64,000 bases of DNA from Acidimicrobiia bacterium (GCA_024762335.1 JANTHO010000006.1:1912-65911), one strand, 5' to 3'; shown: positions 196-57,264, counted from the first letter of the stretch. Translations and numbers: made by a program. Notes: generated from the sequence alone by a model not told the origin.

Positions 196-659
196 GCTGT
201 GGCCTTCTGGGTGAGGGAGTCGAACGAGTGATGCTCTACCGCTTCGTCGACGAACAGAAGGCCGAAGGATTCCCCGTGGGGCGCATCTGCGAGATCGCCG
301 GCGTGTCGACGTCGGCGTACTACGACTCGAAGCAGCATCGTGACGGCAGGCCCACCGCCACCGAGCTTCGTGAACGGCTCCTCGTCAACGAGATCCGGCA
401 GATCCACACGACGTCGAAAGGGACGTATGGGTCGCCTCGCGTCACCGTCGAGCTCTGTACCCGGGGCCGGGTGGTGAACCACAAGCGGGTGGAGCGTCTG
501 ATGCGGATCCATGACATTGTCGGCCATACGCCGAAGAAGTGGACGGTGACGACGATCCCGTCTGCGACGCATCGCATCCCCGACCTGGTGAATCGGGACT
601 TCGTGCCCGACGGGCTCGATGTGACCTGGGCGGGCGACATCACGTATATCCGTACCTGG

Positions 660-4172: not shown

Positions 4173-4926
4173 TCCACACCGTCAGGTCGAGTCCGAACAT
4201 TTCGGCGAGGCGGTGATTGTGCGGCTCGTACGATGCTCGCAGCTCTTGCAAGAGGGACGGAGACAGGGATGGGACAGGAGCCTGAGATGAGTTGACCACC
4301 TCAAGCCGGGTGACGGGGAGCGGGTCTACGCCCAGAAAGTCATGGATCCCCTCGATGACAGTTGTGTCGGTGCCGAGTCGCTCAAGCTCCACGACGCGCA
4401 TGCGGGACGCGCCAAACTCGTCCAACCAAGGCTCGAGGAGCTCTGCGTACCGGCCACGCTTCAGATAGCTGTACGGGGACACCGAGTATTTCGTCACGTC
4501 GTAGGGACGCACTTCGGCGTCGCTGGTGAGCGCCTCTTCGATCGGGAGGTTCTCAGCCCCGTGACTCGATGAGAAGCGAAAGTGTGAGACTGCCCGGGCC
4601 GACGGCTCTCGAACGATTGCGATGATCGATGCGTCGGGGATTGCGTCGTGGATCGCTGCGGCGCTGTCTGGGCGGTCGAGGTAGCTGGTGCTCTTCTCCC
4701 CGAATACCGAGACGTCAATGTTCCCGAACCTGCTGAGGTACTCAGATGCGCTCCTCGGTGCGGTGGTTCCGATGAACGAACGCGGCTCCGGTCGTTCGGG
4801 CTCAAGGAACCGAATGTCTGGATGAGTGTTAAGAACACGTCGAAGCAGCGTCGACCCGCATCGCTGGCCGCCAATGATGAAAACGAACCGCGGGGCGGGA
4901 CGGTGGTCTGTTCCCGAGTCTGGCAT
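4165..4926 (-). CDS. Sulfotransferase (PAPS-dependent family)
   Basis: 5'-PSB-like loop FIIGGQRCGSTLLRRVL near the N-terminus. 3'-PB-like motif IAIVREPSARAVSHFRF. Confidence 0.8.
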   Translation of the reverse strand: MPDSGTDHRPAPRFVFIIGGQRCGSTLLRRVLNTHPDIRFLEPERPEPRSFIGTTAPRSASEYLSRFGNIDVSVFGEKSTSYLDRPDSAAAIHDAIPDASIIAIVREPSARAVSHFRFSSSHGAENLPIEEALTSDAEVRPYDVTKYSVSPYSYLKRGRYAELLEPWLDEFGASRMRVVELERLGTDTTVIEGIHDFLGVDPLPVTRLEVVNSSQAPVPSLSPSLLQELRASYEPHNHRLAEMFGLDLTVWNG

Positions 4927-5017
4927 GAAACGCTGTTCTGGCTTGTTGGGTTTCGAGGATAGGACGTGGTGGTGGGAACGAACCGATTGTTGGATTTCAG
5001 GCTGGTATCTTCTTCAC

Positions 5018-5614
5018 ATGGCGGGTTCACAAAGGAGCGATCGGACGCGAGACTCTTCGGCGAGGGCGGCACGACCTGGTCTGGAGTGGGCGTTCGGAAC
5101 GACATCGCGCAAGCGGCGACTCAATGAGTGGTATGTGTGGGCGGCTAATCTCGCTCACTCCGTTCTGGAGCTCTTTCCAGGGCCGGTACGGCGATTCGTG
5201 TGGCGTCGCGCATTTGGTTCATGCGGACGCGAAGTCTTCATCGATCACAAGGTGTATGTGAAGTTCCCGTGGCTTGTGTTCGTGGGTGATCACGTGTCGC
5301 TCAATCGAGGATGCGAGTTCTATCCGGACCTCTCATCGGGTTCGACGATCACACTCGGGGCGGATGTCTACGTAGCTCCCAACGTCCGGTTCCATGCATC
5401 CGGCCACGACATCGGGGATTTGGAGCGGCACATTGGTGGAGATATCCGAGTGGGGAACGGATGCTGGATCGGTGCAGGTGCCACAGTGTTGCCCGGGGTG
5501 GTAATCGGGGCTGGAAGCGTTGTTGGCGCGGGGGCCGTGGTCGCACGGGATGTGCCCGAAAGAGTCGTGGTGGCAGGAGTTCCGGCGCGAATTGTCAATG
5601 CCGTTGAACGGTGA
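5018..5614 (+). CDS. Left-handed beta-helix (hexapeptide repeat) O-acetyltransferase, WcaF/maltose acetyltransferase-like
   Basis: C-terminal hexapeptide repeats: IRVGNGCWIGAGATVLPGVVIGAGSVVGAGAVVARDVPERVVVAGVPARIV. I trimmed the start to the ATG at 5018 because the upstream part of ORF 4826 overlaps the divergent sulfotransferase gene. Confidence 0.8.
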   Translation: MAGSQRSDRTRDSSARAARPGLEWAFGTTSRKRRLNEWYVWAANLAHSVLELFPGPVRRFVWRRAFGSCGREVFIDHKVYVKFPWLVFVGDHVSLNRGCEFYPDLSSGSTITLGADVYVAPNVRFHASGHDIGDLERHIGGDIRVGNGCWIGAGATVLPGVVIGAGSVVGAGAVVARDVPERVVVAGVPARIVNAVER

Positions 5615-5650
5615 GCGGTCAGGTGCGGTGGCCCGGCGGCCGCGCCGGTG

Positions 5651-6652
5651 TCAGCGGTTCCGCAGGTAGGTGCCGGCGAACAGACCCATGATCGCCTGGG
5701 TCATCTTGCCTTTGATATGACGGCCGTCCTCTTCCCAGGCGTTCTCCTGTCTCGTGTTCATCGCCGCCTCGTAGCTGGGGAAGTAGTGGACGTTGTCATG
5801 CTGCGATGCGAACTCGTCGGCGGCGGTTCGCAGTGTCGACTTGGAGTAGGTGTTCGCAACGACGATGTCACGGTCCGTGAAGGTCGCCATCAGCGGGACG
5901 GGCGACACGGTGACGACGAGTTGCAGGTTCGGGTGGCCGAAGCGGGTCAGTGTGTCGTAGACCGCTTCGAGGTTGTTGAGGTTCTCGTCGAATCCGAGGA
6001 TCCGGAACCGGTAGCGACCCGGGTAGGCCGCGAGCATCTCTCTCGTGGGTGTCATGTTGATGTAGACACCGACCGTTTCGTCGTACCACGCCTCGACGAG
6101 ACCGAGCGTCATGAATACAACACGGCAATCTGCGACCCTGCGGGTCACATCTTGGATGATCGCCCGCCGTTCCAGGGTGCGGGAACGGTCGACGAACTGC
6201 AACGTCGGATTCGTGTGAGGATCGATCGAGACGTTCTCAAGGTCGACGATGCTGTCGAACGGGAAGGGCGTGTCGGGGTCGAGAGCCCATTGAAGGCTGT
6301 CACGAATCGATCGGGTCGTGTACTTGTTGGTGAACCCGAGCGTGGTCACGCCGGGGCGACTGAGTTCGAATTTATCGAACTCGACGGCGGCGCTGGCGAC
6401 GTCGAGGCCTCGACCGACGAGGGTCTGCTCGATACCGCGGGCAAAGCAGGAACCGATCGCGTACACGCGGTCATCCGGCTGTAGCTCGAATTCGGCATGG
6501 ACGACGGGCAGGAAGAACTCGGTGGTCAGGCGCTGTACGGCGAACGGGCCTACCGGGTCTTCCACGTCGATGTTTCGCTTGTGCCACCGACCTGCGGTGT
6601 TGCGGGAGAGCCTCCCGAAAGCGTCCTCGGCAGAAGTGTCGATGTTCGACAT
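5651..6652 (-). CDS. GSCFA-domain protein
   Basis: The name-giving motif is present (RVYAIGSCFARGI). Length (333 aa) and overall layout fit the GSCFA family. Biochemical function unknown. Confidence 0.8.
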   Translation of the reverse strand: MSNIDTSAEDAFGRLSRNTAGRWHKRNIDVEDPVGPFAVQRLTTEFFLPVVHAEFELQPDDRVYAIGSCFARGIEQTLVGRGLDVASAAVEFDKFELSRPGVTTLGFTNKYTTRSIRDSLQWALDPDTPFPFDSIVDLENVSIDPHTNPTLQFVDRSRTLERRAIIQDVTRRVADCRVVFMTLGLVEAWYDETVGVYINMTPTREMLAAYPGRYRFRILGFDENLNNLEAVYDTLTRFGHPNLQLVVTVSPVPLMATFTDRDIVVANTYSKSTLRTAADEFASQHDNVHYFPSYEAAMNTRQENAWEEDGRHIKGKMTQAIMGLFAGTYLRNR

Positions 6653-6749
6653 CAGATATTCCTCTCGGGCAACCGCGTTGTTTGAAAGAGCGTAGACGCG
6701 GAAGGGGACGGACAGCGTCCGTCCCCTTCCAGTCGTTGTCGGCTATCGG

Positions 6750-7892
6750 TCAGTTGCCCATGTTCGACATCGGCGAGTAGTAGCCGGTGACGATGAGACG
6801 GACGTCGCCGCTGCTGTTCTGCATCTTCAACGACATCTGGTCGTTTCCGGCGATCGGAATGGTTGAGGATCCGTTCCAGCGTGGCAGGTCGTTCGTGAAA
6901 GCGACGAGGCCCGCCGGTTCTGTGCCGCCCTGGGCCCATGCCTTGAGCGTTCCCGTCCCCGCTGGTGACAGTACGAGGATGTTAGTCTGCACCGCCGTAG
7001 CGGCGGCGTTGATTCCACAGTTCCCGTCGCCGCCGACCCCGCTCGTGTCACCGGTGACGGTGAACGAACGTATCTCGTTGGCAGCGAACGCACCTGTGCC
7101 GCCCTGCCCAGTACGCGAATCGAAGATCGCACACGGCTCGACCGGCGTGAACGTCTGGTTGTCTCCGGTCGCCTGAACTTGGTAGGCAACCGTTGCTCCA
7201 CACAGCGTGTGGTTCTCACCCGCTGAGATTGTGGGCTGCCACCCAAGTGAGAAGAAGTTCTTCGTGAACCCGGTAAGGAAACCGCCTACGTATCCCGCAG
7301 CGAGGTCCGGATCAACATCGACATAGACGGAGCCGATTCCGCTCAACCCGGAGCTCGAGCCTGTTGCAACGGTCTCGGATGTCAACGAGGCAGTGCCGCC
7401 GAGGAGGCCAGGACTGTAGACCTGGCCACGATCTACGGTGAAGGTCATGTTGCTGCCCGCATCCGAATCCTTCCCATGGAACGTCACGCTCAGCAAGAGA
7501 GCACCCTGCGGCAACTCAATAGGGGCTTTCGCCAGGACTACGGAACCGAGCGAATTGGATCCGGGTGATACGCATGATCCGGAGTAATCCAGCTGGACCG
7601 TGTCGCTCAGGTCGACGCTCGGTACGAACGCGTCGCCGGGGATGAACTTGGTCAACACGGTGGGATCGTACATGGCGCCGGAAACTGAGATCGACTGCGG
7701 CACGACCGACGTCTCGTCGAAATATCCCAATGTTTCGGTGGCGTCTCCTGCCGTCAGTGCCTTTCCGCCGGTTAGCGGCCCGACGTAGCCGGGGCCGTCG
7801 TCCGTCGCGTCCTGAGCGACGATCGGCGCAGCGCTCAGAACGAGCAGCAGGGCGACCGACGCAGTCAGCAGCAGCTTTCTTCCCTTGAACAT
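6750..7892 (-). CDS. Secreted protein of unknown function
   Basis: Signal peptide MFKGRKLLLTASVALLLVLSAAPIVAQDA, preceded by a strong RBS (GAAGGAGGGG). The C-terminal ~130 aa (CAIFDSRTG...IRSFTVTG...AVQTNILVLSPAGTGTLKAW...VRLIVTGYY) resemble a beta-rich module recurrent in actinobacterial secreted proteins. Confidence 0.8.
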   Translation of the reverse strand: MFKGRKLLLTASVALLLVLSAAPIVAQDATDDGPGYVGPLTGGKALTAGDATETLGYFDETSVVPQSISVSGAMYDPTVLTKFIPGDAFVPSVDLSDTVQLDYSGSCVSPGSNSLGSVVLAKAPIELPQGALLLSVTFHGKDSDAGSNMTFTVDRGQVYSPGLLGGTASLTSETVATGSSSGLSGIGSVYVDVDPDLAAGYVGGFLTGFTKNFFSLGWQPTISAGENHTLCGATVAYQVQATGDNQTFTPVEPCAIFDSRTGQGGTGAFAANEIRSFTVTGDTSGVGGDGNCGINAAATAVQTNILVLSPAGTGTLKAWAQGGTEPAGLVAFTNDLPRWNGSSTIPIAGNDQMSLKMQNSSGDVRLIVTGYYSPMSNMGN

Positions 7893-7995: not shown

Positions 7996-9372
7996 ATGAC
8001 GGTTGTCTCGGTGCATGTGCCGAAAGCAGCGGGGACGAGCCTGTTCGAGGCATTCAAGGGTGCCTTCGGTGAGGCTTCTGTTCAGCGAATCGATGATGAT
8101 CCGCTCGATCCGCTCTCGCTGTGCCGGATCGACCCCTCGAGCTATCTCGAGACGGCCCGTCGCGTGGGTGCGCCGGACGGTGCGGCAGTTCTCCACGGAC
8201 ATTTCTGGGCAAGACGATTCGATTTCATGCCCGACGCCGTCAAGATCACTGTGCTTCGCGACCCGGTGGAGCGCATGTTAAGTCACTATTTCTTCTGGCG
8301 ACATTCAAGACGAAGAGGACACGGACTCCTCGACTACGTACGGGACCACGAACTCACCATCGAACAGTTCGCCCGGCTTCCCTCCATTGCCCGCATCTAC
8401 GGTGGTGTGTTTTTCCGGGACGTTGATCCCGCTTCTTTCGACTTCATCGGAAACACGGGAACGCTCCATGCCGAACTTCCCCACCTCAGCACGGCCGTCG
8501 GACGTGAACTTGTGATGCCACACGTGAACGAAAGCCCCGAACCGGAATATTCGAGAGAACTGGCTGCGGTGCACGAGAACACTCGGCTGATGGAGCGATT
8601 GCGGGAGATTCTCGCCGAAGACATCGCATGGTATGAGCACGCGCTCCGGCCGCGTGCTCAAGCGGATACGACACCTGCCTTCCTGACTCCTCCGGCCGGC
8701 GGCAGCCAGTATGCGGATCCGGTCAAAGTTGAGCGACAGGTGAAACAGGGTGAGCATCGTGCAGTGATCGGTGGCATGTGGGATGAGATCGGGCGACTGG
8801 CGGAGCGGTTCCTCATCGCCGACGGGCTCCGTCCCGATGATCGGTTTCTCGACGTCGGCTGCGGTTCGCTACGCGTGGGCGTGCGACTCGTGCCGTACCT
8901 GGACGCAGGAAGGTACTTCGGCACGGACCTCAACAAGCCGCTTCTCGACGCAGGATTCGAACGGGAGATCATCCCGCTCGGATTGGCCGGCCGACTACCG
9001 AGACGCAACCTCGCAGCGATCTCCGGGTTCAACGTGCCGTTCGAGGGCGCGTTCGACGTGCTCCTCGCGCTGTCGGTTTTCACCCACCTGCCGATCAACG
9101 ACCTCAGGGTCTTCCTTGAGCGATCCGTCGCCGCCACCCATCCCGGTTCGAGGATCTACGTCACCTACTTCCCGGCAGATCGTGCTGGACGGCTGGCAGA
9201 TGCTGTCAACCACCACCCGGGGGGCGTGCGCACGTTTGGGGACCGCAACCCGTTCCACCTGCGCGGGGGCGATCTTCAGTACGCGGCGGATGGCCTGCCT
9301 TTCGATCTCAACATCATCGGTGAGTGGGGACACCCGCGAGCTCAGCACATGGCCCGTTACGACCGGTGGTAA
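7996..9372 (+). CDS. Fusion protein: N-terminal sulfotransferase (family 2 type) + C-terminal class I SAM-dependent methyltransferase
   Basis: N-terminus has VHVPKAAGTSLFEAF and VLRDPVERMLSHYFF (sulfotransferase family 2 signatures). C-terminus has FLDVGCGSLRVGVRLVPYLDAGRYFGTDLN (SAM-binding motif I) and DVLLALSVFTHLP. Confidence 0.8.
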   Translation: MTVVSVHVPKAAGTSLFEAFKGAFGEASVQRIDDDPLDPLSLCRIDPSSYLETARRVGAPDGAAVLHGHFWARRFDFMPDAVKITVLRDPVERMLSHYFFWRHSRRRGHGLLDYVRDHELTIEQFARLPSIARIYGGVFFRDVDPASFDFIGNTGTLHAELPHLSTAVGRELVMPHVNESPEPEYSRELAAVHENTRLMERLREILAEDIAWYEHALRPRAQADTTPAFLTPPAGGSQYADPVKVERQVKQGEHRAVIGGMWDEIGRLAERFLIADGLRPDDRFLDVGCGSLRVGVRLVPYLDAGRYFGTDLNKPLLDAGFEREIIPLGLAGRLPRRNLAAISGFNVPFEGAFDVLLALSVFTHLPINDLRVFLERSVAATHPGSRIYVTYFPADRAGRLADAVNHHPGGVRTFGDRNPFHLRGGDLQYAADGLPFDLNIIGEWGHPRAQHMARYDRW

Positions 9373-9439
9373 GTGTCCCCGATTCCGACCACATCTCTGA
9401 TGCGACACCCGTGCCACTGAGCAGAGGGGGGCGGTCGGG

Positions 9440-10561
9440 ATGAGCACTCGACAGATCGTCAGAGCATCGCTACCCGATCCGCCAGCTGATACCGTGATCG
9501 TGTCTACCCCGGGATGGCGTAGGAATCTCAGATGGACGATTGGCAGCGGGCCAGTACCGGGGAGCGGATCGCTGCTCGACGCTGCCGCGATCGCTCTCAC
9601 GCCACTTGCCCAGGCACGCGGATGGGCACTTCGGCTCGAAGGTCTCGTAGACGTCGACCTTCTCGCTCAACTGGAGGAGTACCAGGAGGCGTTCGCCAAA
9701 CTCCATCCAGGAATCTTCAGTCGGGTGCCGGTTTCGGCAAGTAGCGTTGGAGAAAGTAATATACCGACCGGGGCACAAGGCACCGTACTGGCGTTCTCCG
9801 GCGGGGTTGACTCGGTGTGGACTCTCTTAGCAAACCAGACGGGTGAGTTCGGCTTTCGAACGAAAGAGATCGTGGCGGCCATCCAGTTCCACGGATTCGA
9901 TCTATCCCTTGCCGACACGGCGGCACATCGAAGGGCCGCAACTCATGCAATGGCGATCACCTCCGCGTTCGACGTACCGCTCGGGACCGTCAATACGAAC
10001 TGGCGCGAGGAATTCTCCCCAAACTACACGCTTAGCTTCGTCGCAGGACTCGCTGCCGGGCTTCGACGGTACTCGGGCATCGCCGATGTTGGCATAGTCA
10101 CGCTCGACAATCACTACGGACATGAGACGGTCGGATGGGGTTCGTCGTCATCGACGAACCCGTTGCTCGGCAGTCGCCGGTTTCCGATTCGCAGTGCCGG
10201 CGGCGGCAGGTCGCGGTTCGAGAAGATCACCGACATTGCCCGGTATCCAGTTGTGCGGCAACACATCCGATCATGTTGGGAGGGGACCGAGACAGCGGGT
10301 GAAAATTGTGGCCGGTGTGAAAAGTGTCTTCGAACCATGCTGGGCTTCGCGGCGGCCGGATACCAGTACACCGGGGCGTTCGGTCGCACGGAAGCGCCCC
10401 TTGTGCGCACCATCAGAGCCAGAACTGCGGGGCAACTCGCTTATCTAGACGAACTCGTCGGCGTCGGACTCGCCCCCGATCTCGAGGACGCTCTCGACGA
10501 GGCGATCGAGCATTCGAGGATGCTGATCGATGTGATGAACGACCCGGGGACGCCGCCGTGA
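9440..10561 (+). CDS. PP-loop ATP pyrophosphatase superfamily protein (QueC-like or N-acetyl-sugar amidotransferase-like)
   Basis: PP-loop motif VLAFSGGVDSVW. C-terminal Cys cluster SCWEGTETAGENCGRCEKCLRT, reminiscent of the QueC zinc site. Sits inside the glycan operon. Confidence 0.7.
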   Translation: MSTRQIVRASLPDPPADTVIVSTPGWRRNLRWTIGSGPVPGSGSLLDAAAIALTPLAQARGWALRLEGLVDVDLLAQLEEYQEAFAKLHPGIFSRVPVSASSVGESNIPTGAQGTVLAFSGGVDSVWTLLANQTGEFGFRTKEIVAAIQFHGFDLSLADTAAHRRAATHAMAITSAFDVPLGTVNTNWREEFSPNYTLSFVAGLAAGLRRYSGIADVGIVTLDNHYGHETVGWGSSSSTNPLLGSRRFPIRSAGGGRSRFEKITDIARYPVVRQHIRSCWEGTETAGENCGRCEKCLRTMLGFAAAGYQYTGAFGRTEAPLVRTIRARTAGQLAYLDELVGVGLAPDLEDALDEAIEHSRMLIDVMNDPGTPP

Positions 10562-11634
10562 CCGGCACGAGGTCGCAGCCCAGAGGTGAACCATTTATCG
10601 CGATTCGCTCGGCGCTTGTTCGGCAAGTCAGCCAAGCGCTTGCGGGGGCGAGGCGGATCGCGTTCATCAACTTTCCAGACATCGGAAACCTCGGTGATGC
10701 TGCGATTTGGCTCGGCACGATGGACATCCTTGCAGAGCTCGGTGTGGCCGTCGCATACCACACACGTGCACAGGACCTGTCGATCGATGCCATTCTTGCC
10801 ACCGGACCGGATGCAGTCGTCCTCAATGGCGGCGGAAACCTCGGAGACCTGTGGGCCGGCCAACACCAGGCACGCGAAGCAGTCCTTCGACAACTCCACG
10901 ATCTACCGATTCTCCAGTTGTCCCAGAGCATGTGGTTCAACAGTCGGGCGAATCGCGAACGCTTCGCCGGGATTGCAGCCGGGCCCCGGGATCTGACGAT
11001 GCTCTGGCGGGAGCAGCGAAGTTTCGATGAGGCCACCGCGTGTCTCTCCGGTTCGCATGTCCTGGCCCACGACATGGCATTTGGGCTTACTCCGACATCG
11101 CGAATTGGAGACCCGATCACACCGGTGCTCGCACTGCTCCGCACAGACCGGGAACGGCGGATCGAGTCGATCCACGCCGCCCGCTCGGGCATCGCGGTCG
11201 AAGACTGGCAAACATCGCCGGTCCCAACCGACGACAGAATCGTCGCTGCATCCAGCGAAGCGGCCGATCTCCACGCCGACCCGCTCGGCAACCTCCCCCA
11301 TATCGAAGCACTCTATCTCGAACTTGCGCGGCGTCGGGTGAGCCGAGCCATCAAGATCCTCAGCCGCGGAGAGGTCGTGATCACCGATCGGCTCCACGCA
11401 CACCTGCTTGCCGGCATCGCCGGAATCCCATCGGTCGCTCTGGATAACACGTACGGCAAAGTGTTGGGGGTTCGCCGTCGCTCGCTCGGTGAGACCGAGG
11501 CCCTGCGAGAAGCGGCGAGTTTCGATGAGGCTCTCAACTCAGCAATGTCTCTGGCCGGCACATTGTCGCGACCGAGCACAGGTCATCGTGAGGATGATCT
11601 GGGTGTCCCTAGAATTCCCTCTTCACCGGACTGA
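10558..11634 (+). CDS. Polysaccharide pyruvyl transferase (CsaB/WcaK family)
   Basis: FINFPDIGNLGDAAIW near the N-terminus and ITDRLHAHLLAGIAGIPSVALDNTYGKV near the C-terminus. The GTG start at 10558 overlaps the upstream stop (GTGA). Confidence 0.8.
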   Translation: MTGTRSQPRGEPFIAIRSALVRQVSQALAGARRIAFINFPDIGNLGDAAIWLGTMDILAELGVAVAYHTRAQDLSIDAILATGPDAVVLNGGGNLGDLWAGQHQAREAVLRQLHDLPILQLSQSMWFNSRANRERFAGIAAGPRDLTMLWREQRSFDEATACLSGSHVLAHDMAFGLTPTSRIGDPITPVLALLRTDRERRIESIHAARSGIAVEDWQTSPVPTDDRIVAASSEAADLHADPLGNLPHIEALYLELARRRVSRAIKILSRGEVVITDRLHAHLLAGIAGIPSVALDNTYGKVLGVRRRSLGETEALREAASFDEALNSAMSLAGTLSRPSTGHREDDLGVPRIPSSPD

Positions 11635-11647
11635 TGAGCCATCCTTT

Positions 11648-12490
11648 ATGACAACGACTGCTTCCCATCGCGTATACGACTCCGCTGCAAAGCGGACGCC
11701 GCTCGTCAGCGATTTTCGCAATCTCTATGCCCACCGCAAGCTGATCCGGTTGCTTGTGACGAGGGATCTTACGATCCGCTACAAGCGATCGGTGCTCGGC
11801 ATCTGGTGGACCCTCCTCAACCCGATTCTCACGACTGCCGTGATGTGGGTGATCTTTTCCCAGGTCTTCAAACGGGCCGACACGGGAGATGTCCCCTTCA
11901 TCATCTACCTACTTTCCGGTGTCTTGTTCATCTCGGTGTTTTTTGCTCAGGGCTTGTTGGCAACCGGGTCTTCTCTGCTGAACAGCCGAGCGATTCTGAG
12001 CAAGATTCCCGTACCAGGCGAGGTACTCGCCGTCACGGCTGCCCTCGCTGTTGCACTGAACTTTGTGCTCGCCCTCGTCCCGATGTTCGCTCTCCAACTC
12101 ATTCTCGGTGTGGGTATTCCCTGGACCGTTCTTCTCCTGCCGATTCCGATTCTCGCGATGCTCTTGCTTGTGACCGGTCTCGGCATGGCGGTAGCGTCGG
12201 CGGCCGTGCACTTCTACGACACGCTCGACTTTGTCAGTTTCCTTGTACAACTCTCCGTATGGGCCGTGCCGACGTTCTATCCGATCGGCATGGTGCCGGA
12301 CACGTTCCAGATCCTCATCAAGATCAATCCGTTGTTCTCATTCCTCACTGTGTTCAGGGGCTTTGCCTATGGCGGGGAGTTCGCGCCGCTGTGGAATTTC
12401 GCTTACATGGGAGGCTTCGCTCTCGTGGCGTTCGTTGGGGGAATCTGGATCTTCTCGAGCAGTTGGCGAAGACTGGTGGCATACCTGTGA
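11648..12490 (+). CDS. wzm: ABC-2 type polysaccharide/teichoic acid exporter permease
   Basis: DLTIRYKRSVLGIWWTLLNPILTTAVMWVIFSQVF plus six hydrophobic segments. Start trimmed to the ATG at 11648. Confidence 0.9.
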   Translation: MTTTASHRVYDSAAKRTPLVSDFRNLYAHRKLIRLLVTRDLTIRYKRSVLGIWWTLLNPILTTAVMWVIFSQVFKRADTGDVPFIIYLLSGVLFISVFFAQGLLATGSSLLNSRAILSKIPVPGEVLAVTAALAVALNFVLALVPMFALQLILGVGIPWTVLLLPIPILAMLLLVTGLGMAVASAAVHFYDTLDFVSFLVQLSVWAVPTFYPIGMVPDTFQILIKINPLFSFLTVFRGFAYGGEFAPLWNFAYMGGFALVAFVGGIWIFSSSWRRLVAYL

Positions 12491-13254
12491 GCGACGCGGC
12501 CACGCCGATCACCATCTCGAACGTGTCGATGGCGTATCGAATGAGTCGAAACAAAGCTGCGACGTTCAAAGAGTATGCGATCAATTTGATGCGCCGCCAG
12601 ATCGAGCATGAGGAGTTCTGGGCCCTCACCGACGTGTCGTTCGAAGTCCCGAAGGGAGAGGTGTTCTCCGTCATCGGCCCGAACGGTGCGGGTAAGAGCA
12701 CCCTCATGAAGGTGGCGGCGGGGATTCTCGCACCGTCGAAGGGCCGAGTCGTCGTGCGCGGATCCGTGTCGCCTCTCATCGAGGTCGGTGGCGGACTGAA
12801 CGACGAACTTACCGGTCGAGAGAACATTGTGATCTACGGGTCGATGCTCGGACGCGATCCTGCCGAGATGCGCGAACGCGTCGATCAAGTCGCCGGATGG
12901 GCCGGGCTTCGACAGTTCCTCACCGTGCCGGTCCGAAGCTACTCGACCGGCATGCGGGCGAGGCTTGCGTTCTCCATCGCGACCGACCAACGGCCGGATG
13001 TGCTGCTCGTCGACGAGATTCTCTCGGTCGGCGATGAGGATTTCAGACTCAAGTCGTTCAAACGCATTCGGAACATGATCGACGCGGGTACAACCGTTCT
13101 CCTTGTATCCCACCAATTGAAGCAAGTTGAAGAACTCTCGACGCGGACCATGTGGCTCCACAACGGTGAGATACGGATGCTCGGCGAAACAGCGCCGATC
13201 GTCGACGCCTACCGGGAATCGGCGGAGAGCGGACAGGAGGGGACCGTGGCATGA
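12487..13254 (+). CDS. wzt: ABC polysaccharide exporter ATP-binding protein; short form without a C-terminal carbohydrate-binding extension
   Basis: Walker A GPNGAGKSTL, signature YSTGMRARLAF, Walker B VLLVDEILSVGD. The GTG at 12487 overlaps the wzm stop (GTGA). 255 aa. Confidence 0.9.
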   Translation: MSDAATPITISNVSMAYRMSRNKAATFKEYAINLMRRQIEHEEFWALTDVSFEVPKGEVFSVIGPNGAGKSTLMKVAAGILAPSKGRVVVRGSVSPLIEVGGGLNDELTGRENIVIYGSMLGRDPAEMRERVDQVAGWAGLRQFLTVPVRSYSTGMRARLAFSIATDQRPDVLLVDEILSVGDEDFRLKSFKRIRNMIDAGTTVLLVSHQLKQVEELSTRTMWLHNGEIRMLGETAPIVDAYRESAESGQEGTVA

Positions 13255-13799
13255 ACGTTGAACGAACAACGATCCCGGACGTGCTCGTCATCCGGCCGGA
13301 GGTGTACGGAGACGACCGAGGTTTCTTTTTCGAGGCATTCAACCTCGAAGCGTTCGAAGCAGCGACCGGAGTCGTGAGAAACTGGGTTCAGGACAACCAC
13401 TCGAGATCGGTTCACGGTGTACTCAGAGGACTGCACTTCCAGAACCCGAAGGCGCAAGGCAAGCTCGTGCGATGTGCGTCAGGCCGGGTCTTCGACGTCG
13501 TCGTGGACGTTCGCCGATCCTCAGGTACGTTCCTCGAATGGACCGGCATCGAACTATCCGAGCAAAATCGCCTGCAACTATGGGTGCCCGAAGGATTTGC
13601 TCACGGCTTCCTCACGCTGTCCGAGAGCGCCGACCTCATCTACAAGGCCACCGACTACTACGACCGGGAGGCCGACCAGTCGATGAGGTGGAACGATCCG
13701 GCAATCGGCATCGACTGGCCGCTCGACGATACGATGCCCCTCCTATCGGAGAAAGATGCCGGCGCACCGCTCGCAGAGGATGCCCATCTCTACGAGTGA
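13251..13799 (+). CDS. rmlC: dTDP-4-dehydrorhamnose 3,5-epimerase
   Basis: IPDVLVIRPEVYGDDRGFFFEAFN, VQDNHSRSVHGVLRGLHFQ, LWVPEGFAHGF. ATGA overlap with wzt. Confidence 0.95.
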   Translation: MNVERTTIPDVLVIRPEVYGDDRGFFFEAFNLEAFEAATGVVRNWVQDNHSRSVHGVLRGLHFQNPKAQGKLVRCASGRVFDVVVDVRRSSGTFLEWTGIELSEQNRLQLWVPEGFAHGFLTLSESADLIYKATDYYDREADQSMRWNDPAIGIDWPLDDTMPLLSEKDAGAPLAEDAHLYE

Positions 13800-13847
13800 G
13801 GTAGCCTCTCGGCAACACGGAGGGAAATTATCGCACGCCAGTATCTC

Positions 13848-14801
13848 GTGACCGGAGGCGCCGGGTTCATCGGCTCCAACTTCATCCGGTACGTGCTCGA
13901 CCACGAACCCGAAGCGCAGATCACGAACCTCGACGCTCTCACCTATGCGGGCGTTCCTGCAACGGTTGCGGAACTCGACGAGAGTCCCCGGCACACATTC
14001 ATCAAGGGCGACATACGGGATCGGAGACTCATCGACGAGATCATGCCGACGCATGACATCGTTGTTCACTTCGCCGCGGAGAGCCACGTGGATCGATCCA
14101 TCGAAGGACCAGCGCAGTTCTTGGAGACCAATGTCGTCGGCACCGGTGTCGTAATCGACGCGGCGCGGCGACACCATGTCAGCCGCTTCGTCCACGTCTC
14201 CACCGACGAGGTGTACGGATCCATCGCGGACGGGTTCGCGGCCGAAGACGATCCACTTGCACCGTCATCGCCATACTCAGCCTCGAAAGCGGCCTCGGAT
14301 CTGCTCGTTCAGTCGTATGGGACCACCTACGGAACCGATGTGATCGTGACCCGATGCACGAACAACTACGGGCCTTACCAGTTTCCGGAGAAAGTGATCC
14401 CCCTCTTTGTCACCAACCTCATCGACGGACTGAAAGTACCGCTCTATGGGGAGGGCCTCAATCAGCGTGACTGGCTCCACGTCGAGGACCACTGTTCGGC
14501 CATCCATCTACTTGTCGACGCAGGCATCGCAGGAGAGATCTACAACATCGGAGCGAACGCCCAGCTCACGAACGTCGCACTGACGGACGCCATTCTCGCC
14601 GCCTTCGGAAAGGACGAGACCTGGATCGAACACGTCCCAGACAGGCTCGGCCATGATCTCAGATATGCGGTGGATTCCTCGAAGATCCGCTCGCTCGGAT
14701 GGAGTCCCCGCCACGACTTTCGAGAGCAGCTCGAGAAGACGATCGACTGGTACCGTCGCCGCACGGACTGGTGGACACCGCTCAAGGGAGGCAAGACGTG
14801 A
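13848..14801 (+). CDS. rmlB: dTDP-glucose 4,6-dehydratase
   Basis: VTGGAGFIGSNF Rossmann motif, YSASKAASD catalytic motif, DWLHVEDH. The start may lie a few codons upstream (ATT/ATC at 13827/13830 after GGAGGGA). Confidence 0.95.
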   Translation: MTGGAGFIGSNFIRYVLDHEPEAQITNLDALTYAGVPATVAELDESPRHTFIKGDIRDRRLIDEIMPTHDIVVHFAAESHVDRSIEGPAQFLETNVVGTGVVIDAARRHHVSRFVHVSTDEVYGSIADGFAAEDDPLAPSSPYSASKAASDLLVQSYGTTYGTDVIVTRCTNNYGPYQFPEKVIPLFVTNLIDGLKVPLYGEGLNQRDWLHVEDHCSAIHLLVDAGIAGEIYNIGANAQLTNVALTDAILAAFGKDETWIEHVPDRLGHDLRYAVDSSKIRSLGWSPRHDFREQLEKTIDWYRRRTDWWTPLKGGKT

Positions 14802-15667
14802 AAGGCATCCTGCTCGCGGGCGGCGCCGGCTCCCGGCTGGACCCGATTACCCGGGTAGCGAGCAAGCAACTCCAACCCGTCTATGACAAGCCGATGGTGT
14901 ATTACCCGCTGGCAACCCTGATGGCGGCCGGAATCCGTGACATTCTCGTCGTCTCGACGCCCACGGACACGCCGCGGTTCCGGGACCTTCTCGGCGACGG
15001 CTCGGCGTGGGGCCTGTCTCTCTCATACGCCGTCCAGGCGGAACCGAAGGGCATTGCCGAAGCATTCCTCGTGGGCGCGCACTTCATTGGCACGGACCCG
15101 GTCGCGCTCGTTCTCGGCGACAACATCTTCCACGGCCTGCCCAACCTCGCAGGAATCGTCGAAGGTTTCGACGACGGTGCCATGATCTTCGGCTACGAGG
15201 TTCGTGACCCCAGACGTTACGGCGTCGTCGAGATGAGCCCGGATGGTTTCGCGGTTTCTCTGGAGGAGAAACCGGCTAAACCGAGGTCGAATCTGGCGGT
15301 GCCAGGGCTCTACTTCTACGACGGCAGTGTTGTTCAAACGACGAGAAACCTCAAACCGTCCGCGAGAGGTGAACTTGAAATCACGGACCTCAACCGTGCA
15401 TACCTCGACCGGGGCATGCTCACCGTCGTACCGCTCGGCCGCGGGGTGGCATGGCTAGACAGCGGAACCCACGACAGCCTGCTCGATGCCGCCAATTTCA
15501 TCGCCACCATCGAACACCGGCAAGGTCTCAAGATCGCGTGCCTCGAAGAGGTCGCATTCGAAATGGGATACATCGACAAGGCGCACCTCAGCGAACTCAT
15601 CGGTGACATGCCACGCTCGACCTATCGTGAGTACCTGGAAGGTATTCTGCCCAACGGTCCGGCATGA
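14798..15667 (+). CDS. rmlA: Glucose-1-phosphate thymidylyltransferase
   Basis: VKGILLAGGAGSRLDPITRVASKQLQPVYDKPMVYYPL. GTGA overlap with rmlB. Confidence 0.95.
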   Translation: MKGILLAGGAGSRLDPITRVASKQLQPVYDKPMVYYPLATLMAAGIRDILVVSTPTDTPRFRDLLGDGSAWGLSLSYAVQAEPKGIAEAFLVGAHFIGTDPVALVLGDNIFHGLPNLAGIVEGFDDGAMIFGYEVRDPRRYGVVEMSPDGFAVSLEEKPAKPRSNLAVPGLYFYDGSVVQTTRNLKPSARGELEITDLNRAYLDRGMLTVVPLGRGVAWLDSGTHDSLLDAANFIATIEHRQGLKIACLEEVAFEMGYIDKAHLSELIGDMPRSTYREYLEGILPNGPA

Positions 15668-16509
15668 TCCTCGTCCTCGGATCCTTCGGACAACTCGGGA
15701 CGGCATTCCGGACGATCCTGGGCCCTGATGCGCGCTCCATCGACATGGAGGATCTTGACCTATCGGACACTGAGACGATTTACGACCGCCTGTCGGCATA
15801 CCGCCCCGAGATGATCATCAATTGTGCCGCCTACACGGCGGTTGATCGTGCCGAGTCCGAGCCGGAGATCGCCAGGGCTATCAACGCCGACGCCGTGAGA
15901 GAGATGGCCAAAGCAGCCGGTGACCTCGGTGCGCGACTCGTCACATTCTCAACGGACTACGTCTTCGACGGGACAGCGAACGGGTCATACGTCGAGTCCG
16001 ACGAACCGAACCCGATCAACATCTACGGACTCACGAAGCGAGAAGGCGAAGTCGCCGCCCTCGCTGTGAATCCCGATGTTCTCGTTGTACGAACCTCATG
16101 GCTGCTCTCCGGAACCCACCCCAACTTCGCATCGACAATGCTGCGTCTCGCCGGAGGCGAAGGTGGCCGGATCGTGAACGATCAACGGGGACATCCGACA
16201 CTCGTCGACGACCTCGCTCCTGCTGCGCTTGAGGCGGTTGAACGGGGCGTCACCGGAATACTTCACCTGACAAATCAGGGAACGGCAAGCTGGTTCGGGC
16301 TCGCAGGCGAGATTGCGGTGATCGCTGGTCTGGATTCCACAGTATTCGAACCCTGCACAACCGCAGACTTCCCGACACCGGCACGGCGACCTGCGAACTC
16401 GGTCTTGAAGAGCGAACGGCTGGATGCGTTCGGCCTCCACGAAATGCCTCACTATCGAGAAGGCCTCGAAGAGGCCGTGCATGGGCTCGTGGATAGGGGG
16501 CTCGCCTGA
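15664..16509 (+). CDS. rmlD: dTDP-4-dehydrorhamnose reductase
   Basis: MILVLGSFGQLG, INCAAYTAVDRAE, VTFSTDYVFDG, YGLTKREGE. ATGA overlap with rmlA. Confidence 0.9.
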   Translation: MILVLGSFGQLGTAFRTILGPDARSIDMEDLDLSDTETIYDRLSAYRPEMIINCAAYTAVDRAESEPEIARAINADAVREMAKAAGDLGARLVTFSTDYVFDGTANGSYVESDEPNPINIYGLTKREGEVAALAVNPDVLVVRTSWLLSGTHPNFASTMLRLAGGEGGRIVNDQRGHPTLVDDLAPAALEAVERGVTGILHLTNQGTASWFGLAGEIAVIAGLDSTVFEPCTTADFPTPARRPANSVLKSERLDAFGLHEMPHYREGLEEAVHGLVDRGLA

Positions 16510-16540
16510 CCCAATCCGGGCGCGTGTGCGATAACCTCGC

Positions 16541-18286
16541 ATGGCCATGAAGATCACGATCGTCAACGTCGACGGCTCACCGAACCGCGTGGATGCCGCT
16601 CTCGATCTCGCCGCACGATCCCTCGCAGACGCAGGATGGGATGTCGAGCAACTGCGACTGCCCTCTCGCGGGATACCGGCTGAAGCCAGCGACGAGCACC
16701 GCAGGCTCCTGCATCTATTCACGCTAACGCCGGGCACACTGATCGAATCGTGGCGAATCGCCCGACATCTCGAGTCGCTCACTTCCCCCGGCGACACCGT
16801 GTTGCTCTCCGACTATCGAGGGTTCGGAGGCATGTTCGCCCTCGAGCAAGCATCGCACTCTGAGAGAGAACGTCGCAGTGTCTGGACTCTTGCAGGAGCG
16901 TCGATCACTCTTGCACACCTCGATACGCTGGGAACGATCGGCGGATACGAAGGCGAGACCAACTCAGCCATCGACTGGGAACTCGTTCAATACCGCTTCA
17001 GCGAAGCGGTTATCTGTCCGGCACGGCGAGGTGTCGAACTCCTCGAGAAAGTAGGCGTATCGGCGGTCCCCATGCCCGTCTCAGGACCTACCGTTGCCAC
17101 GGCGTCATCCGGGACGGAGTCCGTGATCTGGCTTCCGGAAGTCGTATCTCGGACATCGAAAACGTCGATGATCGTGAGAAGCCTCGTGTCCGTGCTCGAA
17201 GCGCGGCCCGACACACTGGTCGTGATGAGTGAGGAAGACGAAGAAGACGAGATCTGGGAAGGCACGACATGGAGGCAAGTCGCTGCGACGGCCGAGCGGT
17301 ACGGCGCCCGCATTCAGAGGAGCTCGGAGGATCCGGGGGGCTGGGTCGTCCTCGGCGACGCGTTCGTGGTCCCCGACCCAAAGCTGGTCGAGGCATACGC
17401 CTCCGGGAGACGGATCTTCGCCCCGATTGGCAGCGTCGCAGCGGCGATGATGCCCCAGGCCGTGCCTTGGAAAGACGAAGACAGTCTTGAGGACGCGCTC
17501 CTCCGGGGTACGACTCCGACCGCAAAGGATCAAGAGCAGGAGAGATCATGGCCGCTGCCGATGCCACACAGTGATCCTGACCGTGCCAGCAAGGTGTCGG
17601 TCGGAATCCCGGTTTTCCGGGATGTGCGCTTCCTCGATCAATGTCTCCAGTCGGTGCTCGATCAGTCCCAGCCTCCTCATGAGTTGGTCTTGTTTGATGA
17701 CGGGTCTCTCTCGGCCGAGGTGGGGGCCACCCTCGAAGTGTGGAAAAGCCGCCACCCCAACCTTATCCGGGTGATGCAGGGTCCGAATCGAGGCGTGTGC
17801 GTAGCCCGCAACGCGATGATCGAAGCATTCACCGGGGACGCCTTCGTGCTCGTCGACAGCGACGATGTGCTCCACCCCGACTTCATCGAAGCATGCAGGA
17901 ACGTTCTCCGATCGAGACCGGAAGTCGTGGCCGTTGCAACCTGGACCGAATTCTTCGGCGGATACGAAGGTGTGGAGGCCAAGCCGCCCTTCGACGCTCG
18001 CGTCGGCATGCGCGAGAACCCGATCATCTCTACAGCTGTGCTCGTCGACGCGAAGATTCGTGACGACGGGATCAGATTCGCCCCCGACCTGGCCTTTCTC
18101 TACTGCGAGGATTGGCATCTGTGGTCGCAGATCGTCGCCGACGGCGGTACCTTTGGCCTCGTACCCAGGGCCCTCGTCCGTCATCGAGTTCACCCGTCGT
18201 CGGGCGCCATGAAGCGGACTGCCCTCGCCCACACGGTTGGCCGGGCGCGAGCAACCGAACCGATCCGGCCCGGTGATCTTCCATGA
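16541..18286 (+). CDS. Two-domain glycosyltransferase: divergent GT-B-like N-terminal half + GT2 C-terminal domain
   Basis: C-terminal GT2 signature VSVGIPVFRDVRFLDQCLQSVLDQSQPPHELVLFDDGS ... VLVDSDDVLHPDF. Confidence 0.85.
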   Translation: MAMKITIVNVDGSPNRVDAALDLAARSLADAGWDVEQLRLPSRGIPAEASDEHRRLLHLFTLTPGTLIESWRIARHLESLTSPGDTVLLSDYRGFGGMFALEQASHSERERRSVWTLAGASITLAHLDTLGTIGGYEGETNSAIDWELVQYRFSEAVICPARRGVELLEKVGVSAVPMPVSGPTVATASSGTESVIWLPEVVSRTSKTSMIVRSLVSVLEARPDTLVVMSEEDEEDEIWEGTTWRQVAATAERYGARIQRSSEDPGGWVVLGDAFVVPDPKLVEAYASGRRIFAPIGSVAAAMMPQAVPWKDEDSLEDALLRGTTPTAKDQEQERSWPLPMPHSDPDRASKVSVGIPVFRDVRFLDQCLQSVLDQSQPPHELVLFDDGSLSAEVGATLEVWKSRHPNLIRVMQGPNRGVCVARNAMIEAFTGDAFVLVDSDDVLHPDFIEACRNVLRSRPEVVAVATWTEFFGGYEGVEAKPPFDARVGMRENPIISTAVLVDAKIRDDGIRFAPDLAFLYCEDWHLWSQIVADGGTFGLVPRALVRHRVHPSSGAMKRTALAHTVGRARATEPIRPGDLP

Positions 18287-24561: not shown

Positions 24562-24615
24562 TTGGACTCGTCGTCGGGGAGGCATCACTTCGGGGCGCCG
24601 TCTCTCTGTCCGTCG

Positions 24616-26166: not shown

Positions 26167-26176
26167 CTAGAGAAGG

Positions 26177-29075: not shown

Positions 29076-29086
29076 GGCGCCTGAGT

Positions 29087-31220: not shown

Positions 31221-31265
31221 GCTGGGTCCTGCCTGTTACGGGTACGCGGTACGCTTTGGGTCGTC

Positions 31266-32459: not shown

Positions 32460-32488
32460 CTGCGGCCTCGCCAGAGGGCATTGGGGAT

Positions 32489-57263: not shown

Positions 57264-57264
57264 A

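Follow-up and report, generated by a model that had tools for sequence, protein, structure and literature searches.

Organization of the polymer locus

The DNA analyzed here (the window, 64,000 nucleotides) derives from an uncultured Acidimicrobiia-like actinobacterium and contains an ABC transporter-dependent locus, the predicted product of which is a cell-wall polysaccharide rich in rhamnose. The gene of interest, PvT, is part of an operon (7996–24561) that contains, in this order, MT458, unk373, PvT, wzm, wzt, rmlC, rmlB, rmlA, rmlD, and five glycosyltransferase genes, with ORFs mostly joined by 4-nt overlaps. The operon genes and the adjoining pair on the opposite strand are as follows:

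7996–10561, plus strand: MT458 and unk373, the two genes upstream of PvT in the same operon
10558–11634, plus strand: PvT, a ketal-pyruvyl transferase of 358 aa (PF04230, Pvg1p/WbbZ-like), predicted cytoplasmic
11648–13254, plus strand: ABC exporter, Wzm (11648–12490) and Wzt (12487–13254), from ABC2_membrane and ABC_tran matches and gene calls
13251–16509, plus strand: dTDP-L-rhamnose pathway, rmlC, rmlB, rmlA, and rmlD
16541–24561, plus strand: GT2 of 581 aa, GT1 of 387 aa, bifunctional GT4-GT2 of 850 aa, GT1 of 588 aa, and GT2 of 307 aa
24616–27820, minus strand: GT-C-type membrane protein (DUF2142/PMT_2) with 8 TM segments, and GT2 of 547 aa

The GTG start codon of PvT overlaps the stop codon of unk373 (GTGA) and wzm starts 14 nt downstream of PvT. 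PvT therefore lies inside the polymer operon, where the preliminary description had placed it, and forms a run with wzm/wzt and rmlCBAD in which the ORFs overlap or nearly touch.

MT458 carries a C-terminal SAM methyltransferase domain and an N-terminal region that is weakly sulfotransferase-like, and no family was assigned to unk373. PDB sequence searches with MT458, unk373, and unk384 (described below) returned nothing useful. Wzt (255 aa) lacks the C-terminal carbohydrate-binding domain through which some exporters recognize caps; specificity is also absent from the exporter of Klebsiella O1/O2a (PMC10629545). Homologues of Wzm and Wzt in an Acidimicrobiia MAG (L004/L022) are 47%–53% identical, and rmlCBAD share 50%–74% identity with related loci. 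The first four glycosyltransferases are conserved in L003–L008, L018, and L023. The fifth, the 307-aa GT2, ends in C-terminal TM helices and probably forms, together with the pair at 24616–27820, an extracytoplasmic side-chain glycosylation module; no GT-C block is present in L018, the syntenic relative. Scans for operon promoters and terminators gave counts at or below the shuffled expectation, and an Rfam scan of the 64-kb window had no matches. No TagA/WecG-type transferase (PF03808) was found in any window ORF. We also rejected a Wzx/Wzy AP locus of the Clostridioides difficile type, as the window has a Wzm/Wzt pathway instead and none of its ORFs belongs to the LCP, Wzy, or glycerophosphotransferase families.

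PvT belongs with Pvg1p and WbbZ

Calling genes independently on the contigs of the source metagenome reproduced the coordinates of PvT. The PF04230 profile (PS_pyruv_trans) covers the protein end to end, matching at profile positions 1–278 of 280 with 83 bits (E 4.4e-23, cut-off 25.3), and TM prediction found no TM segment. By sequence, the best characterized match is Pvg1p of S. pombe (5AX7; 96 bits, E 2e-26). An AF2 model of PvT (pLDDT 89.5) matched Pvg1p (E 4e-18, TM 0.72/0.78) and WbbZ of Klebsiella pneumoniae O1b (6X1L; E 2e-9, TM 0.57/0.76) in Foldseek searches, at sequence identities of 18%–26%. These are the closest characterized proteins in both sequence and structure, and PvT belongs with them, an assignment made from the best matches rather than from a tree.

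In an alignment of 62 sequences, N44-x-G46-D47 (x being L), R151..S155, R195, and T276-D277-R-L-H280 of PvT are invariant or nearly so, and GGGN (91–94) is family-invariant. According to PMC10629545, the PEP site of pyruvyl transferases has NxGD, RxxxS/T, and the TDRLH His as conserved residues. PvT has all of these; it is intact and is predicted to be active.

The preliminary description assigned PvT to the CsaB/WcaK family. This stands at the level of the PF04230 superfamily only. The equivalog HMM sets PvT apart from CsaB (TIGR03609, 28.9 bits versus a cut-off of 213.1, over the C-terminal half only), and pairwise comparison sets it apart from WcaK (BLASTP against E. coli WcaK, 26.6 bits over 78 residues, pairwise E 0.001); PvT has no match to the NCBIfam WcaK model. 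A tree of PvT could not reveal its acceptor, because pyruvyl transferase clades follow neither sugar nor linkage (PMC10629545).

PvT would be a soluble, PEP-dependent enzyme. Its substrate is most likely the glycan while still linked to undecaprenyl on the cytoplasmic side, presumably before export by Wzm/Wzt, and the pyruvate ketal that it would add carries a negative charge. WbbZ places a terminal pyruvate that ends polymerization of an ABC transporter-dependent O antigen, and mobile elements flank its gene (PMC10629545). Since PvT directly adjoins wzm/wzt and neighbors a methyltransferase, it may cap the non-reducing end with pyruvate in the same way, as suggested by gene position alone. 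The acceptor of WbbZ is β-Gal, whereas the candidate acceptor of PvT is the rhamnan or a side chain.

PvT is part of an accessory decoration module

Upstream of the operon lies a set of genes with predicted decoration functions:

192–1938, plus strand: IS-related genes, an HTH_21 fragment and an IS30-like HTH_38 + rve transposase
2565–4172, minus strand: 8-TM protein (TM count)
4165–4926, minus strand: sulfotransferase (Sulfotransfer_3, 51.6 bits)
5135–5614, plus strand: hexapeptide acyltransferase (Hexapep, 50 bits)
5651–6652, minus strand: GSCFA protein (GSCFA, 153 bits)
6750–7892, minus strand: unk380

The IS genes flank this module on its left side. In the related loci that we fetched, no homologue was found for the genes at 2565–7892, MT458, or unk373, and none of MT458, unk373, and unk380 recurs beside PvT homologues. 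The module shows no clear difference in GC or GC3 from the rest of the window, so we make no claim of horizontal transfer from composition.

PvT itself is a singleton. Its best non-self relative is 39%–45% identical (a search of 5.8 billion clusters and an exhaustive search of 1.84 billion representatives), and no relative above 45% identity was found in about 15 billion proteins. It is absent from the rhamnan loci of L003–L008, L018, and L022–L024, and L018, the closest relative, has no detectable orthologue in protein-database searches and in the approximately 21 kb of its 55-kb contig that were read directly. A further PvT could be encoded elsewhere in the genome of L018 or of the window organism. 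PvT homologues elsewhere belong to EPS or O-antigen-like loci that have no CWB2, and one of them (L010) is next to wzm/wzt.

We conclude that PvT is not in the conserved core of the locus and is part of an IS-flanked accessory module (methyl, sulfate, acyl, and pyruvate) found only in this population. Strain-level decorations of this type are usually what underlies variation in antigens or phage receptors. With a PvT that seems to be active and a genuine sulfotransferase, a polymer carrying both pyruvate and sulfate, as predicted from the genes, is credible.

The wecB block and six CWB2 proteins follow the polymer locus

Downstream of the operon, a block of nucleotide-sugar and glycosyltransferase genes directly abuts the first of six genes encoding CWB2 proteins:

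27768–29165, minus strand: UDP-glucose 6-dehydrogenase (UGDH)
29087–30241, minus strand: unk384
30120–31220, minus strand: wecB (TIGR00236, 276 bits versus a cut-off of 210)
31035–32447, plus strand: synthase-like GT2
32489–33472, minus strand: GT2
33417–35573, plus strand: GH26-like hydrolase (likely start 33594) with a C-terminal CWB2 triplet (around 34746–35567)
42663–46019, plus strand: Amidase_2, FG-GAP repeats, and a CWB2 triplet (around 45087–45953)
49157–51349, minus strand: subtilase S8 and a CWB2 triplet (around 49160–49978)
51346–53322, minus strand: CWB2 triplet (around 51964–52776) and a VanW domain
53047–54564, plus strand: peptidase M23 and a CWB2 triplet (around 53644–54513)
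55026–56483, minus strand: CWB2 triplet (around 55458–56258) and a YkuD L,D-transpeptidase

WecB is a true non-hydrolysing UDP-GlcNAc 2-epimerase according to TIGR00236. The dehydrogenase near wecB is a UDP-glucose 6-dehydrogenase and not WecC. Pfam yields only a weak GT1 match for unk384, the single-sequence AF2 model of which has a pLDDT of 36. The distance between wecB and PvT, given earlier as 19 kb, measures 18.5 kb, and wecB lies on the other strand in a different gene block, which also occurs without PvT (L004/L022 and L018). With this separate and PvT-independent block, the low TIGR03609 score of PvT, and no TagA/WecG in the window, the proposed analogy to CsaB and ManNAc does not hold.

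The six CWB2-triplet proteins were confirmed, with three PF04122 domains each (E 9e-48 to 2e-56), that is, 18 CWB2 domains in the window by local HMM. The ILL motif of CWB2 is essential in C. difficile (PMC4973711); 15 of the 18 domains have a P-[ILVM]-L-L motif. All six proteins start with an N-terminal hydrophobic segment, and they are exported enzymes with canonical triplets. No SLH domain (PF00395) was found in the approximately 55 plausible genes of the window, in the 75 other ORFs of at least 150 aa in six frames, or with a local SLH HMM at E ≤ 10 across the 64 kb. The statement that the locus has CWB2 rather than SLH proteins is thus correct within the 64 kb and does not extend to the lineage, since L018 encodes both.

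The anchor of a conserved wall-enzyme suite differs between Acidimicrobiia lineages

L018 is 86%–87% identical to the window in KorA/B, 79% in WecB, and 67% in the GT4-GT2. It keeps the core glycosyltransferases, the UGDH-unk384-wecB-GT2 genes, the GH26-CWB2 protein, and a second CWB2 protein, and encodes an SLH protein beside korAB, in a syntenic region. UGDH, unk384, wecB, and both GT2s are retained there at 62%–87% identity. Among the related loci fetched, UGDH and unk384 occur only in L018 (62%–64% identity) and are absent from every FG-GAP-type locus. The order wecB-GT2-GT2-GH26 is syntenic in the window, L018, and L022.

At the C terminus, the 120 GH26 homologues carry CWB2, SLH, or a 4x FG-GAP-like repeat, and a metagenome scan with GH26-CWB2 returned one locus, L017, which carries an SLH variant. 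The S8 domain of the window is 37%–47% identical to L023/L024 proteins with the 4x repeat in place of CWB2. The M23 domain shares 44%–51% identity with proteins of L017/L023/L024 that end in different modules, and the YkuD domain shares 74% with a protein of L024 in which the 4x repeat module is N-terminal. Orthologous S8, M23, YkuD, and GH26 domains thus carry the 4x repeat in L022–L024 and SLH in L017.

Several Acidimicrobiia genomes have the GH26-like enzyme next to genes for rhamnan or to wecB, and in two complete-genome-scale contigs the S8, M23, and YkuD enzymes are located there as well. This supports a linkage between a wall-polymer locus and the cluster of CWB2-anchored enzymes. A new observation is that a wall-enzyme suite (GH26-like, S8, M23, and YkuD) is conserved beside rhamnan loci and that its anchor module differs by lineage, being the 4x FG-GAP-like repeat in most Acidimicrobiia, an SLH triplet in some, and CWB2 here. 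Judging from L018, PvT is not co-inherited with the CWB2 suite: this relative has the suite and the shared polymer genes and no detectable PvT counterpart. PvT is also absent at three loci surrounding CWB2 homologues.

Candidate ligands of the CWB2 triplets

PSII of C. difficile is the single CWB2 ligand known, and what pyruvate does on the wall polymers of actinobacteria has yet to be established (PMC6801904). The window answers neither question, and the comparison with relatives narrows both: anchor differences on a conserved suite amount to a natural experiment, in which comparative genomics can approach the ligand through polymer genes that co-vary with each anchor type. The reading that we prefer, at a probability of roughly 0.55, combines three elements: PvT is an accessory decoration enzyme, the CWB2 ligand is an anionic polymer made by conserved genes, and pyruvate is at most a modulator. 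The six CWB2 proteins would be the local version of the conserved wall-remodeling suite adjoining the rhamnan locus, the anchor of which has been exchanged between lineages among the 4x FG-GAP-like repeat, the SLH triplet, and the CWB2 triplet. It is plausible that CWB2 docks on an anionic polymer made by the locus, and this polymer would probably come from the conserved neighboring genes. Pyruvate would be an optional modulator of binding at most and not the defining epitope. For CWB2 of C. difficile, “positive patches” have been mentioned for PSII binding, the binding residues themselves being not mapped (PMC8881574).

A more specific proposal is that the ligand is a uronic-acid polymer, or a GlcA decoration, specified by the UGDH-unk384-wecB-GT2-GT2 block, which wecB would feed instead of PvT. 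This is possible, though we would not bet on it. The block abuts the first CWB2 gene, UGDH and unk384 follow the CWB2 state in both CWB2-type genomes, and in an unrelated contig (L014) a CWB2 gene adjoins a nucleotide-sugar 6-dehydrogenase/epimerase locus. GH26 is a β-mannanase family, which would fit a β-ManNAc-type substrate, and its gene is syntenic with wecB and the two GT2s. However, the comparison is based on two or three CWB2-type loci with 10-kb flanks each, and unk384 has no assignable function. L022 has wecB-GT2-GT2-GH26 with a non-CWB2 anchor, so these four genes alone cannot be the determinant. As first candidates for the CWB2 state, the comparison favors the uronic-acid genes over pyruvylation, and uronic acid appears to be the better comparative candidate for the determinant as judged from gene content.

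The preliminary description instead proposed that a pyruvate ketal, with or without sulfate, on the rhamnan is the CWB2 epitope, a new pair convergent with SLH/pyruvyl-ManNAc. PvT is intact and inside the export operon, the CWB2 cluster adjoins the polymer locus, and the sole known CWB2 ligand is anionic (PMC4973711). A pyruvate cap as docking site has a precedent in SLH domains, whose ligand is a pyruvylated residue at the terminus (PMC8942822), and anchor modules swap within the class, which suggests co-evolution of polymer/anchor pairs. Against this, PvT is at most 45% identical to anything known, its homologues elsewhere lie in loci without CWB2, CWB2-bearing L018 has counterparts of the neighboring genes and none of PvT, the three loci around CWB2 homologues lack it, and PSII is not pyruvylated. 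We therefore consider the epitope proposal improbable, and pyruvate as a CWB2 binding determinant “in this lineage” is doubtful, with odds that we put low; in this one organism, a singleton PvT and its pyruvate may be important for CWB2 binding. The fuller scenario, in which CWB2 triplets replaced an ancestral 4x FG-GAP-like anchor and dock on the pyruvate-capped, sulfated rhamnan of the adjacent operon, is a long shot. If true, it would provide the first CWB2 ligand outside Firmicutes, and surface display that depends on pyruvate would have arisen convergently, by a route without CsaB.

The S-layer glycan cluster of Geobacillus stearothermophilus encodes an ABC transporter-dependent rhamnan, a methyltransferase, and a bifunctional glycosyltransferase. 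The gene set of the window recalls this cluster, and the rhamnan might accordingly be a protein-linked S-layer-type glycan, capped by PvT and the methyltransferase, rather than a peptidoglycan-linked polymer. The WsaF-type rhamnosyltransferase in a relative's locus, the PMT_2/DUF2142 GT-C protein, and a window free of LCP ligase genes are consistent with this. We nevertheless hold it to be unlikely, as neither an S-layer protein candidate nor an oligosaccharyltransferase was identified, L018 lacks the GT-C block, and the LCP ligase and initiating transferase may be encoded outside the window.

Least probable of all is that PvT pyruvylates a polymer anchoring SLH proteins encoded outside the 64 kb: SLH/pyruvate coupling is well established (PMC6801904), L018 has an SLH protein along with CWB2 proteins, and the GH26 enzyme has SLH versions in the class, but PvT is no CsaB equivalog, the window has neither TagA/WecG nor SLH genes, and L018 has SLH without an orthologue of PvT.

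Comparison with known systems

As in the CsaB/pyruvylated β-ManNAc SCWP/SLH systems of Bacillus anthracis and Paenibacillus alvei, the window combines a PF04230 enzyme, there acting on a lipid-linked precursor in the cytoplasm, with a polymer locus close to genes encoding wall proteins that are held non-covalently by triple-repeat anchors. It differs in its CWB2 anchors, in having no TagA/WecG in the window, and in a wecB unlinked to PvT.

Streptococcal and lactococcal Rgp/GAC loci combine rmlABCD, rhamnosyltransferases, an ABC exporter, a polyprenyl-P-sugar GT2, a GT-C side-chain module, and charge-adding decorations. The window likewise has rml genes, an ABC exporter, and a probable GT2 and GT-C side-chain module. 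The charge is glycerol phosphate in those loci, whereas pyruvate, sulfate, or GlcA would serve here, and the window comes from an actinobacterial class without a cultured model for such a locus.

In C. difficile, PILL-motif triplets are likewise found on amidase, protease, and L,D-transpeptidase-type enzymes beside a polysaccharide locus. The cwp cluster adjoins the AP locus, an arrangement that the window resembles (PMC4973711), and a MurJ-family gene is nearby in both. PSII has phosphate linkages and no pyruvate, and its synthesis follows a Wzx/Wzy-like route with MviN, the CD2777 polymerase, LCP ligases, and a glycerophosphotransferase in the AP locus. In contrast, the pathway described here is Wzm/Wzt-dependent and rhamnose-based, no LCP or polymerase is seen in the window, and the phylum is another one.

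Pyruvate ketals and sulfate occur on wall glycopolymers of Promicromonospora, Nocardiopsis, and Brevibacterium, where their function is unknown (PMC6801904). For those polymers there are structures to which no genes are assigned, whereas the window offers genes without a structure.

In Peptostreptococcaceae, wall-enzyme repertoires swap SLH and CWB2 anchors and keep the catalytic domains (bioRxiv 10.1101/2025.04.02.646754). The Acidimicrobiia suite similarly keeps its catalytic domains and exchanges the anchor between related lineages; it belongs to another phylum, and a third module, the 4x FG-GAP-like repeat, is the majority state here.

Annotation of the window

About 55 plausible genes were annotated against Pfam and NCBIfam, and the other 75 open reading frames of at least 150 aa were scanned in six frames. 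The G+C content is ~62% and the closest genome loci are Acidimicrobiia MAGs. The gene order is as follows:

192-1938: IS-related genes (HTH_21 fragment and IS30-like transposase), the left border of the accessory decoration module
2565-7892: accessory block (8-TM protein, sulfotransferase, hexapeptide acyltransferase, GSCFA, unknown gene)
7996-24561 (+): polymer operon (MT458, unk373, the pyruvyl transferase PvT, wzm, wzt, rmlC, rmlB, rmlA, rmlD, five glycosyltransferase genes)
24616-27820: GT-C/GT2 pair
27768-33472: UDP-glucose 6-dehydrogenase (UGDH), unk384, wecB, two GT2 genes
33417-35573, 42663-46019, 49157-51349, 51346-53322, 53047-54564 and 55026-56483: CWB2 proteins with three PF04122 domains apiece
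Interspersed among these: korAB, amidase, DUF3048 and a small LPG_synthase_TM/GT4/DUF354 cluster
Last stretch, right of the CWB2 region: sodN/sodX, MFS transporter, Uma2 nuclease, murJ

The pyruvyl transferase is not of the CsaB type

The 358-aa product of 10558-11634 (+) matched PF04230 across the whole profile (83 bits). The stop codon of unk373 overlaps its GTG start, wzm follows 13 bases on and most junctions further downstream are 4-nt overlaps, so that PvT is embedded in the polymer operon, as the preliminary description had it. The CsaB/WcaK-family assignment made there holds only at superfamily level: the CsaB equivalog model scored 28.9 bits, below its cut-off of 213, and the alignment with E. 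coli WcaK was marginal (26.6 bits). Judged by these scores, PvT is not CsaB-like.

The best solved relative is Pvg1p of S. pombe (96 bits, E 2e-26). A confident AF2 model (pLDDT 89.5) superposed on Pvg1p with TM 0.72/0.78 and on Klebsiella WbbZ with TM 0.57/0.76. Pyruvyl transferases form three clades (CsaB, WcfO and WbbZ with Pvg1p), which are not segregated by sugar or linkage, with three motifs conserved among them: NxGD, RxxxS/T and a His (PMC10629545). All three motifs are invariant in a 62-sequence alignment (N44/G46/D47, R151..S155 and TDRLH276-280 in PvT), which together with the fold match suggests that the enzyme is probably active. Its acceptor sugar is not readable from the sequence. 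WbbZ serves as the capping and chain-terminating enzyme of an O antigen that depends on an ABC transporter (PMC10629545). PvT abuts wzm/wzt, which fits capping in an ABC-transporter pathway, and one homologue (L010) also lies next to wzm/wzt. By analogy, we infer that PvT may cap the chain.

Two other proteins of this region were observed. MT458 (7996-9372) pairs a SAM methyltransferase at its C-terminus with a weakly sulfotransferase-like N-terminal region; its gene lies two ahead of wzm/wzt, and it could be a WbdD-like chain-end modifier. On the border of the accessory module, adjoining the sulfotransferase, 2565-4172 (-) encodes a 535-aa protein without a family match that has ~8 TM segments and could be a membrane enzyme of ligase- or polymerase-like type.

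PvT lies outside the core of the lineage

The PvT sequence was found only in metagenome assemblies of runs SRR19843165 and SRR19843167. Its best non-self identity was 39-40% in a word-indexed search of 5.8 billion clusters and 42-45% in an exhaustive HMMER search of 1.84 billion representatives, where it represents its own 50% cluster. The 55-kb contig of the closest relative, L018, carries counterparts of KorA/B (86-87%), GT2_470 (87%), WecB (79%), GH26 (73%) and the 850-aa GT (67%). More distant Acidimicrobiia rhamnan loci (L003-L008, L022-L024) retain rml and core glycosyltransferases, and L004/L022, from one MAG, also wzm/wzt; neither PvT nor homologues of the other accessory genes occur in these loci. 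Elsewhere, PvT homologues belong to loci of exosortase, Wzx or rhizobial/sphingomonad EPS type that have no CWB2. This distribution places PvT outside the lineage's core. It is a genuine, probably active singleton decoration enzyme of Pvg1p/WbbZ type in an ABC-transporter rhamnan operon.

At 23638-27820, GT2_307 (TM helices at its C-terminus), a GT-C protein of DUF2142/PMT_2 type and GT2_547 probably make up a module for extracytoplasmic glycosylation of side chains. The syntenic L018 lacks this set, which is thus a second variable module of the locus.

CWB2 anchors and their candidate ligand

The preliminary description noted CWB2 rather than SLH proteins in the window and proposed that in this lineage CWB2 modules may dock on a pyruvylated, possibly sulfated rhamnose polymer made by the locus. 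All six CWB2 proteins have an N-terminal hydrophobic segment, and 15 of their 18 domains carry the motif P-[ILVM]-L-L; in C. difficile the ILL core of this motif is indispensable (PMC4973711). SLH was detected in no window ORF by Pfam, nor by a local HMM at E<=10. What the preliminary description observed is confirmed. The contrast holds for the window but not for the lineage, since L018 encodes an SLH protein (L018:19853-20551, Pfam 43.8 bits) directly after korB, on the 21-kb stretch that also encodes its CWB2 proteins, so that the lineage has both anchor types.

The wecB gene (30120-31220, -) is present (276 bits against the TIGR00236 cut-off of 210), and the block of wecB, synthase-like GT2, second GT2 and GH26-like hydrolase shows synteny between the window, L018 and L022. 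This block also occurs without PvT, the adjoining dehydrogenase is UDP-glucose 6-dehydrogenase-like (TuaD model 473 bits vs 187 for the UDP-ManNAc dehydrogenase model) and no TagA/WecG family protein was found in the window. As far as these data show, the pairing of PvT with UDP-ManNAc supply is therefore coincidental. A GT2 of 327 aa whose C-terminal part is a membrane region (32489-33472, -) occupies the apparent gap that separates GT2_470 from the first CWB2 gene; L018 and L022 also keep it beside their GH26 gene.

Comparative support for docking on pyruvate is absent, and the PvT product is unlikely to be the CWB2 ligand, although it might be so in this one organism. A uronic-acid feature is the better candidate determinant in this tiny sample with short flanks: UGDH and unk384 are the polymer genes common to both CWB2-type genomes (window and L018) and absent from all FG-GAP-type loci compared. 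This reading also draws on an unrelated contig (L014:10001-21068), where a CWB2 protein adjoins a nucleotide-sugar 6-dehydrogenase, acetyltransferase, aminotransferase, oxidoreductase and 2-epimerase locus that looks like a diacetamido-uronic-acid sugar pathway. Synteny between the anchored enzyme suite and the polymer locus is conserved, which supports recognition of a locally encoded polymer by the CWB2 anchors, as has been suggested for the cwp/AP loci of C. difficile (PMC4973711). Wall polymers bearing pyruvate and sulfate have chemical precedent in Actinobacteria (PMC6801904), and uncultured Actinomycetota and Chloroflexota have abundant CWB2 proteins.

Anchor modules are exchanged among Acidimicrobiia

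The GH26-like domain has >120 homologues, the named ones nearly all from Acidimicrobiia. The C-terminal module is CWB2 in 4 and an SLH triplet in 15-16 (local HMM; in L017 by Pfam SLH, 52 bits), while the remaining 100, mostly ~570-600 aa, have neither. All five inspected of these 100 carry a fourfold ~47-aa repeat, 'FFFGNPGD...GDWDGDG...YR', weakly FG-GAP_3-like (21-29 bits). The L017 orthologue (L017:8339-9988) is 52% identical in the catalytic domain, with an SLH triplet in place of CWB2, and the M23 homologue on that contig is also without CWB2. On the megabase-scale contigs L023 and L024, GH26, S8 and M23 homologues are grouped beside rhamnan genes, with CAP and YkuD added in L024, and bear the fourfold repeat where the orthologous window domain bears a CWB2 triplet (identities: YkuD 74%, GH26 48-54%, M23 45-51%, S8 37-47%). 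Fourfold-repeat proteins were located at:

L022:10001-11755
L023:10001-17104 and 19283-21229
L024:10001-17855
further ones in L003, L004/L022, L007 and L008

In many Acidimicrobiia the repeat is borne by GH26-like, CAP, S8, M23, YkuD, SpoIID and other exported enzymes encoded beside rhamnan loci, and it appears to be a wall-anchoring module not described before. Between these lineages the anchor module is exchanged in place and suite-wide, analogous to the SLH/CWB2 swaps reported for Peptostreptococcaceae (bioRxiv 10.1101/2025.04.02.646754). This three-state swap is the most useful by-product of the analysis and a route to the true ligand determinants.

Two further observations concern the CWB2 region and its right flank. 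Amid the CWB2 genes, 46026-49233 (-) encodes an LPG_synthase_TM-type membrane protein, a GT4 and a DUF354 protein, which may form a glycolipid or second polymer pathway. The nickel superoxide dismutase gene (57217-58284, +) overlaps an S26 signal-peptidase-like ORF of SodX type on the opposite strand (57265-57735, -); the dismutase domain lies in the C-terminal third of the long sodN ORF, which is probably over-extended at its 5' end.
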